A stretch of DNA of 63,396 nucleotides, filler included, from Chlamydiia bacterium (GTDB lineage: Bacteria > Chlamydiota > Chlamydiia > Chlamydiales > FEN-1388): assembly GCA_903848235.1 (NCBI GenBank). It is 11 parts of 11 records of this genome, joined end to end, with 100 filler letters (N's around TTAATTAATTAA, not from the genome) between each part and the next. Parts side by side here need not be neighbours in the genome. Positions count along the whole stretch, not along the records: positions 1 to 3,154 come from CAINFV010000117.1; 10 more parts are not named here. One strand, given 5' to 3'. The notes under the pieces are model-generated. The model searched no databases, had not been told where the DNA came from, and was given only the letters and a program-made list of their open reading frames with translations. The translations under genes were made by a program, and so were the position numbers. The first letter of the stretch is position 1. The number at the start of each line of letters is the position of its first letter. Shown piece after piece: positions 835 to 1,447 of this stretch.

Positions 835-1200
835 CTGGGTGAAGCACCCAGGCCGGTGTTCTTTGAAAGCAGAATCCTCCTTTTTGCTGGAGATAGTGTC
901 GCCTACGCGATGCGCGAATAACACACGCGCATCGTCTTGATGGCCAGTGTAGTCAAACTGGCCGCGGGGACGAACCCCGCATGTTACCCGGCGTATCTTG
1001 GTCCGATATCCTGCGTATTAGTCAGCTTCTCAGACGTACGTAAGCTGTTTAGATGTTAGGTTAGAGGGCCATTCGCTGCTGCAATAAGAGGGGCGCTGGG
1101 TCCGACTTTGAGCCTTCGTTCCATCTTCTCCCTCCACGGGCGACGCGGATGTCTCTGGGCGCGGACGTCGAAAACGACGCCCGAGAAAGGAGGACAGCGC
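835..1200 (+). ncRNA. Putative retron ncRNA (msr/msd-like) and structured leader of the small ORF
   Basis: Hairpins at 835-851, 908-934, 942-963, 964-980, 1023-1047 and 1162-1183. Long-range helices 887-904/1138-1158 and 875-885/1184-1194. Lies directly upstream of a retron RT operon. Confidence 0.75.
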
Positions 1201-1201
1201 A

Positions 1202-1447
1202 ATGGCTAATTGCGTTGAGGCTTTGGACAGATGCATCCAAATTCTTCAAAGGATGCAGACCGGCGAGAAGATGGAGCCGGCCGACCAGTCCGAGATCGCA
1301 ATGGCGATCGAACAGCTTCAAGCCGCGCGACAAGAGGCCGAGGTGCTGGGTGATAAGAGATGGGAAGCAAAGAGATTTCTTATCCTCGCAACCGTCGGCA
1401 AAGTCGCAGAGGCGATTTGGAAGATTGTGATCGATCTACAGCGATGA
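1202..1447 (+). CDS. Small helical protein (81 aa), candidate retron effector
   Basis: Strong SD (AAAGGAGGA, 1186-1194) 7 nt before the ATG. First ORF of the HTH-RT operon, with an amphipathic C-terminal helix. Confidence 0.7.
   Translation: MANCVEALDRCIQILQRMQTGEKMEPADQSEIAMAIEQLQAARQEAEVLGDKRWEAKRFLILATVGKVAEAIWKIVIDLQR

Follow-up and report, generated by a model that had tools for sequence, protein, structure and literature searches.

The window analyzed here is a 63,396-nt stretch of DNA from the metagenome-assembled genome of a Chlamydiia bacterium (GenBank assembly GCA_903848235.1). Its first 3154 positions hold a locus that, judged by its sequence, is a divergent and newly seen retron of Type VI, a bacterial anti-phage system, with genes in the order small protein (SP), helix-turn-helix (HTH) protein and reverse transcriptase (RT). 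Upstream of SP, the segment 875-885 is complementary to 1184-1194, which contains the Shine-Dalgarno (SD) sequence of SP. We consider it probable that the two segments form the basal stem of the retron non-coding RNA (ncRNA), in the manner of a2/a1 inverted repeats, with the SP SD as its 3' arm and with the reverse-transcription template and the SP message on one transcript. The stem belongs to the fold predicted for the ncRNA portion, exceeds in length what chance would give, and has counterparts of the same layout in related Type VI retrons. The feature is real, and it looks functional; the class of mechanism to which it belongs has already been described, in preprints of 2025-2026 on Retron-Vpa2 and Retron-Sen3.

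Predicted fold of the ncRNA

On the plus strand, TCCTCCTTTTT (875-885) forms 11 contiguous base pairs with AGAAAGGAGGA (1184-1194), including a single G-U pair (884:1185). Adjacent to this stem, 887-904 pairs with 1138-1158 in a second helix of 18 bp that includes five G-U pairs and a 3-nt bulge (1147-1149), and a small hairpin at 1162-1183 adjoins the SD arm and closes a three-way junction in which G886 and 1159-1161 are the only unpaired bases. A preliminary description of this DNA had proposed the same architecture: an anti-SD helix caging the SD of the open reading frame (ORF) at 1202, a neighboring helix with G-U pairs and a bulge, and a hairpin completing the junction. Every element lies at the positions it gave, and all three helices are contained in the minimum free energy (MFE) structure of 830-1230 computed with ViennaRNA; its structural inference was sound. 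The structure has an energy of -173.9 kcal/mol (z = -4.9), which none of 100 dinucleotide shuffles reaches. Pair probabilities of the three helices stay at approximately 0.99 for five 5' ends (797-872) combined with 3' ends at 1200-1260, and forcing the SD to be single-stranded in the ncRNA-only fold costs 11.2 kcal/mol. When the 450 nt upstream were dinucleotide-shuffled 200 times, no shuffle gave a contiguous 11-bp helix over the SD core with at most one G-U pair.

The 3' arm of the stem (1184-1194, a1-like) contains AAAGGAGGA, located 7 nt before the ATG at 1202. Since the SD arm is the 3' half of the basal stem at this distance from the start codon, the SP message would have to run on from the ncRNA without a gap; the lone conserved promoter-like region of the locus agrees with this, and both would bear out the earlier proposal that ncRNA and effector mRNA are one molecule. 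A local hairpin at 1195-1217 (helix 1195-1203:1209-1217), present in both conformations predicted for this RNA, holds the A and the U of the start codon (AUG, 1202-1204). The ribosome-binding site (RBS) of SP and its start codon are thus both sequestered in the prediction, as in a Vpa2-type system.

The predicted fold and its relatives display the elements of a Type VI ncRNA: inverted repeats at the two ends, with the SP RBS in the 3' repeat, and a stem-loop on the 5' side. The 5' stem-loop lies at 833-854 in the MFE structure, just upstream of the basal stem, and is like the hairpin found before the motif CUUUGA in related loci. Between it and the distal anti-SD (875-885, the a2-like 5' arm) lies the conserved single-stranded motif CUUUGAAA (861-868), recognized by the conservation of CTTTGA. 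In canonical retrons such as Retron-Eco1 (Ec86), inverted repeats at the ends of the ncRNA form a stem, and the RT primes beside it from the 2'-OH of a G; to our knowledge, this stem contains no ribosome-binding site. The window resembles the canonical a1/a2 arrangement in having the unpaired G886 directly after the 5' arm, which by analogy makes G886 the candidate priming (branching) nucleotide. Helix 2 leads into the internal stem-loops at 905-1137, with hairpins at 907-935, 942-963 and 964-980, an msr/msd-like body that in the fold model may serve as the template.

Another anti-SD, CUCCCUCC at 1128-1135 (hereafter proximal), belongs to a segment at 1105-1135 that begins with a second CUUUGA and was identified from its pairing in an alternative fold and from the motif count. 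The window ncRNA therefore contains CUUUGA twice (861-866 and 1105-1110), each copy followed within 8-17 nt by a CCUCC-like anti-SD run (875-885 and 1128-1135), and DNA copied from the second module would have a sequence complementary to that of the first. The second copy is not general among other loci.

Searches for a different identity of the region gave little. Rfam returned only three chance-level matches, all below their gathering scores, and no family fits the ncRNA. Five opposite-strand or overlapping ORFs tested in 760-1430 had no Pfam family, the lone match (DUF6372, E 0.074) being below its cutoff, and a coding explanation for the region was rejected on this result. A terminator-like site on the minus strand (893-876) was rejected because it lies upstream of the start of a divergent methylase gene, and the inverted repeat as a DNA operator because its arms are 302 nt apart. 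The seven sequencing runs found to contain the stretch are all DNA runs, with no RNA run among them.

Conservation in related Type VI loci

We fetched 160 loci around distant relatives of the RT (28-44% identity). A usable RT frame was available in 158 sequences (157 fetched loci and the window), 67 of which have an HTH gene directly upstream of the RT and 63 a candidate SP before the HTH gene, a few of these SP calls being doubtful. We kept 45 non-redundant loci that have an SD and an upstream sequence of 330 nt or more. In 38 of these 45 SP-HTH-RT loci an upstream segment forms a helix of 7 bp or more over the SD core, amounting to 59 helices where 22.8 were expected from shuffles; distal and proximal helices of this length occur together in 13 of the 45.

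Covariation was assessed in the largest SP family, in which 19 of 24 non-duplicate regions were aligned; the divergent L009, L014, L015, L037 and L039 were left out before counting. RNAalifold, run unguided on the 19 sequences, predicts a long-range helix in which a segment some 235 nt upstream pairs with the SD and its spacer. In this helix 96.7% of the cells are paired, four of the eight pairs vary on both sides, and one pair appears as six pair types. Its covariation score is 0.398, compared with 0.204 in shuffled data and 0.02-0.14 for slid partners; none of 500 shuffles reaches it, a count that is not a probability because the sequences are related. As in the window, the family consensus starts with a 5' hairpin and a spacer, continues with the anti-SD, a second helix that covaries and internal stems, and ends with a small hairpin and the SD. 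The equivalent of window helix 2 is family helix 4, which covaries, the hairpin at 1162-1183 corresponds to family helix 10, and the 5' stem-loop (helix 2 of the family alignment) has one compensatory pair. The G directly 3' of the anti-SD arm is near-invariant (G18). The proximal helix is 94% paired in the alignment and has no covariation; because both of its strands are invariant, family covariation neither supports nor refutes it. Of the covariation that had been proposed as a check on both helices, then, the anti-SD:SD stem and the second helix do covary in this family of 19 sequences, although the family is not the window's lineage.

The arrangement extends beyond a single SP family. Across SP families, the window included, a conserved 5' module consists of a hairpin, a few bases, CUUUGA(A/C)A and then the anti-SD. 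CTTTGA occurs within 450 nt upstream of SP in 27 of the 45 loci, whereas 0.15 such loci were expected (the window copy lies within 861-868), and a wider form of the pattern is found in 32. We also compared the 28 nt after the motif with SD segments in 28 unique loci. Duplexes with the locus's own SD average -15.4 kcal/mol against -11.3 kcal/mol for foreign SDs, and none of 5000 permutations is as good. The window's duplex with its own SD reaches -20.0 kcal/mol, a value equalled by one of the 27 foreign SDs.

The retron locus and its surroundings

Positions 1-3154 (CAINFV010000117.1) are a single small contig of the 284-contig genome, and the remainder of the window consists of other contigs; the TTAATTAATTAA linker amid N runs at 3155-3254 is a join between separate contigs. 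As the retron contig measures just 3154 bp, its assignment to this genome depends on binning. The 81-aa ORF, the HTH protein and the RT encoded on it follow the SP-HTH-RT order of Type VI retrons.

The SP gene (1202-1447, plus strand), a small accessory gene upstream of the HTH gene as in other Type VI retrons, has a strong SD and matched no family in Pfam or PADLOC. Its sole real homolog is P0122 (62% identity), and a profile-level comparison with the SP family of the related Type VI loci gives an hhalign probability of 86% (E 4.6e-6). The AF2 model consists of three helices (pLDDT 87). By analogy with Vpa2 and Sen3, SP is a putative toxic effector. The HTH gene follows directly (1496-1792, plus strand; 98 aa) and encodes a Cro/C1-type protein (Pfam HTH_3, 4.7e-15; PADLOC HTH_VI, 3e-23). 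It lies upstream of the RT gene, as expected of Type VI, and overlaps its start: the HTH stop TGA (1790-1792) coincides in part with the RT start TTG (1789), which suggests translational coupling. The N-terminal stretch read from 1789 is conserved in P0002, an RT of 63% identity.

The RT gene (1789-2700, plus strand; 303 aa, TTG start) matches Pfam RVT_1 (2.3e-14), and its best profile among 65 PADLOC families is RT_VI at 1.2e-73 (245.8 bits), followed by RT_III-A at 2.3e-59. Residues N94, A95, H98, T233 and G234 are conserved in RT alignments, and we take them to represent the retron NAxxH (N94/A95/H98) and VTG (T233/G234) motifs. The assignment is to Type VI as a whole, whose named SP clusters include cl2075, cl2760, cl3272, cl3897 and 'Large'. 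Close relatives are limited to P0002 for the RT, a metagenomic protein, and P0122 for SP, both from one assembly; all other RT relatives have at most 45% identity. The RT is absent from the 60 related genomes searched, where two other matches (E ~1e-4) are unrelated RT-like stretches, and a single-protein scan of genome contigs for relatives from the window's own lineage found no match.

Two further features flank the retron. A divergent 209-aa ORF on the minus strand (87-716) matches only positions 1-52 of the 221-position N6_N4 DNA-methylase profile, with an E-value of 6e-4 that is below cutoff, and is probably a truncated or broken methyltransferase. Some 300 nt past the RT stop, at about 2993-3046, lies a near-perfect long inverted repeat with the core CCGTCCGTCATCTCC/GGAGATGACGGACGG at 3005-3034, the flanks of which are also complementary.

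The sole promoter-like element was read by eye at 787-828 on the plus strand, just upstream of the 5' hairpin, a position kept in relatives. Here the palindrome GTCA-N7-TGAC (787-801) overlaps a -35-like TTGACA (797-802), and an AT-rich -10-like stretch follows at 821-828; a scan for the sigma-70 consensus under a 16-18 nt spacing rule returned no sites. Of 31 non-duplicate Type VI loci, which span several SP families, 19 have GTCA-N7-TGAC 71-80 nt (once 93 nt) upstream of CUUUGA; the background frequency is 0.0037 per 130 nt. From its sequence and position, the palindrome is a candidate operator for the Cro/C1-type HTH protein. The main text of neither Type VI preprint mentions an operator, a palindrome or autoregulation.

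Alternative conformations, mechanism and significance

Several of our results, and one published finding, weigh against the stem as a functional structure that keeps SP silent. Two of them would fit a functionless match, arising by chance, of a run of pyrimidines to a purine-rich SD. The best duplex energy between the 20-nt SD segment and the upstream region is equalled by 33 of 100 shuffles; this test is non-discriminating, and the contiguous-helix test was used instead. The covariance model of the related family scores the window at 3.9 bits (E 0.15), a silence that says little, since the model also misses 22 of 24 other Type VI loci and finds just two. A functionless coincidence would also have to account for an 11-bp helix over the SD core that shuffling does not produce, for its location exactly as in related retrons, after the conserved hairpin and CUUUGA, for the significant preference of loci for their own SD and for the covariation of the helix in the related family. 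We regard it as highly improbable.

The covariation, moreover, comes from the related family and not from the window's own lineage, for which one relative is known (RT 63%, SP 62%). Natural variation adds a second strain, approximately 94-97% identical over window positions 706-2669, from one run (X5) of another sediment study. None of the 13 differences listed between 825 and 1258 falls in either long-range helix, but up to four of the strain's 36 differences are unlisted, so that a change within a helix is possible. Three of the listed changes keep their pairs (1181 C>T, as G-U; 1068 G>A; 1069 C>T) and one, 1216 T>A, breaks an A-U pair of the AUG hairpin. The remaining nine comprise six at positions unpaired in the 830-1230 fold and three outside that fold, of which 825 and 826 belong to the promoter-like region and the third is 1258. 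The SP of this strain carries two amino-acid changes near the N-terminus, Ala to Thr (1205/1207) and Gln to His (1258). This variation is compatible with the proposed fold, as weak evidence.

Another objection concerns the length of the folded RNA. For 3' ends at 1300-1500 the probability of the distal helix varies between about 0.98 and 0, and at 1500 it is about 0 for every 5' end tried. In the 830-1500 fold, retaining the distal helix costs 9.0 kcal/mol relative to the MFE. That MFE structure pairs CCUCC of the proximal anti-SD (1131-1135) with GGAGG (1189-1193) and holds the SD by only 5 bp, which 4.2 kcal/mol suffices to open. The SD is nevertheless paired in both predicted conformations, with a mean unpaired probability of 0.001-0.29, and when 875-885 is blocked, 1126-1131 pairs with the SD. 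In the same long fold, 1118-1130 pairs over 13 bp with 1265-1277, joining the ncRNA to codons inside SP (11 nt of this complementarity are exact), 1108-1117 pairs with 1464-1473 in the SP-HTH spacer, and 1101-1105 with 1478-1482 over the HTH SD.

Related loci show a comparable shift in their single-sequence folds. Among 28 loci folded as ncRNA only, the SD partner is the distal arm in just 13, the proximal anti-SD in 7, another segment in 5 and a downstream segment in 1, and the SD is unpaired in 2. With full-length folds, the distal arm accounts for only 6, the proximal anti-SD for 10, other segments for 5 and downstream segments for 3, and 4 are unpaired. These results would be explained if the extended fold prevailed in the cell: the ncRNA would be paired both to the coding region of SP and to the spacer between SP and HTH, the distal helix would at most exist briefly during transcription, and occlusion of the SD would fall to the proximal anti-SD at 1128-1135. 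An analogous conformation that repositions the RBS is described in the Sen3 preprint (bioRxiv 10.64898/2026.04.27.721009). On the other hand, it is the distal helix that covaries in the related family, while the proximal one offers no informative variation. The distal arm is also transcribed, and able to pair, before the coding region exists. Predictions for an RNA of 670 nt are unreliable in any case: the conformation flips with the chosen 3' end, and the long folds cannot be trusted in detail. We consider a predominant extended fold rather unlikely.

Whether a basal stem on the SD silences SP is a separate matter, on which the two published systems differ. In Retron-Vpa2, according to the main text of the preprint, the msr-msd and the SP coding sequence form one 'hybrid RNA', the RBS and the AUG lie in stems, and SP is translationally repressed; multicopy single-stranded DNA (msDNA) is necessary for SP translation and sufficient when supplied in trans, and a toehold via conserved 7-nt direct repeats was proposed (Zhang et al., bioRxiv 10.1101/2025.10.22.683967). 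Retron-Sen3, as described in its preprint, also places the SP RBS within its basal stem, but its SP is produced constitutively, and HTH restrains it post-translationally, independently of RT and ncRNA; for Retron-Sen3 and 53 cl2075 retrons the authors describe a second, extended conformation in which the RBS changes position (Garcia-Rodriguez et al., bioRxiv 10.64898/2026.04.27.721009). The Sen3 result is the published finding that counts against SP silencing in the window: a buried SD is no proof of silence.

A window retron working as Sen3 does would use the stem mainly for RT priming, neutralize basal SP post-translationally through HTH, and sense phage at the protein complex rather than at the SD. 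The weak hold on the SD in the full-length fold and the placement of the HTH gene directly after SP, overlapping the RT start, fit such a regime. Conversely, Vpa2 shows that a translational regime exists within Type VI (bioRxiv 10.1101/2025.10.22.683967), and two alternative anti-SD partners plus a hairpin on the AUG provide more occlusion than a priming stem requires. With the sequences compared, the window lineage cannot be placed relative to either Vpa2 or Sen3. A Sen3-like regime seems to us possible but not probable. The earlier proposal that translation stays off until reverse transcription or RNase H processing remodels the RNA therefore holds in part: burial of the SD is predicted and the mechanism is published for Vpa2, whereas Sen3 makes SP constitutively and the full-length fold loses the distal helix. 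The novelty implied by setting translational control against protein-level sequestration is outdated, as this is the model already published for Retron-Vpa2.

In its details the window coincides with neither system. With Sen3 and the cl2075 retrons, as described in the preprint, it shares the SP-HTH-RT order, a structured ncRNA that lies no more than about 300 nt upstream of SP and, in its predicted version, an extended conformation linking the ncRNA to the SP region. The partners differ: the long-range IR1-IR2 pairing of Sen3 joins SL3 to sequence after the SP stop, whereas in the window 1118-1130 pairs with SP codons and 1101-1117 with the SP-HTH spacer. As for the window proteins, SP has one close relative plus a profile-level link to another SP family, and the RT has at most 45% identity outside one metagenomic protein. 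With Vpa2, as far as its preprint describes it, the window appears to share a single transcript for RT template and SP coding sequence, and its CUUUGA pair at 861 and 1105 can be set beside the direct-repeat toehold. In Vpa2, local stem-loops of a 'second arm' contain the RBS and AUG, and a1/a2-like repeats join the 3' end after SP to the first arm; in the window, by prediction, it is the SD that forms the 3' arm of the basal stem, ahead of SP.

If 875-885 and 1184-1194 do form the basal stem, one structure could serve two purposes. It would be the priming structure beside the unpaired G886 for the RT, and it would act as a brake that keeps 30S subunits off the SD and SP translation low, with the proximal anti-SD (1128-1135) and the AUG hairpin as backup occlusion. 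The RNA might toggle between two forms, one RT-competent and with the distal pairing, the other extended and with the ncRNA paired to the SP coding region. By analogy with Retron-Vpa2, phage infection would lead to the accumulation of reverse-transcribed DNA, remodeling of the RNA and release of the SD.

The two copies of the CUUUGA and anti-SD module (861-885, and 1105-1135 in the likely template) allow a more specific scheme, in which the SD toggles between them and msDNA activates toxin translation by strand displacement. If reverse transcription began next to G886, its DNA product would include a copy of the proximal module that is complementary to the distal one and offers a TCAAAG toehold followed by GGAGGGAG, a mimic of the SD. 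Tethered beside the distal module, or acting in trans, this DNA would displace the SD from the distal anti-SD, and RNase H would meanwhile destroy the proximal anti-SD. We hold this scheme to be distinctly unlikely. If true, it would give a concrete strand-displacement route for msDNA-activated toxin translation, to which GTCA-N7-TGAC, as an operator for the HTH protein at the promoter, would bring a layer of transcriptional control. Figures or supplementary material of either preprint might already contain the CUUUGA motif or the pair of anti-SDs.

An initiation region buried by distant pairing within the same RNA and activated by processing or refolding is familiar from the mRNAs of type I toxins such as hok. 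The likeness is one of working principle and not of membership: there is no sequence relation, the window system lacks an antisense RNA, and hok lacks an RT. In canonical retrons the msDNA is an antitoxin partner rather than an activator of toxin translation. Type VI is the one retron type in which the reverse-transcribed DNA reportedly turns the toxin on, not off, and the two Type VI retrons studied so far disagree over translational control. The locus described here, from an uncultured bacterium of freshwater sediment, gives the type a divergent new member. In several SP families whose RTs are only 28-44% identical, the basal stem that buries the SD either covaries or follows the SD of its own locus, and it stands behind a conserved hairpin-CUUUGA module, often with a second, proximal anti-SD. 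These observations do not establish a new kind of system; the comparison defines the mutations that would tell a Vpa2-like from a Sen3-like regime.

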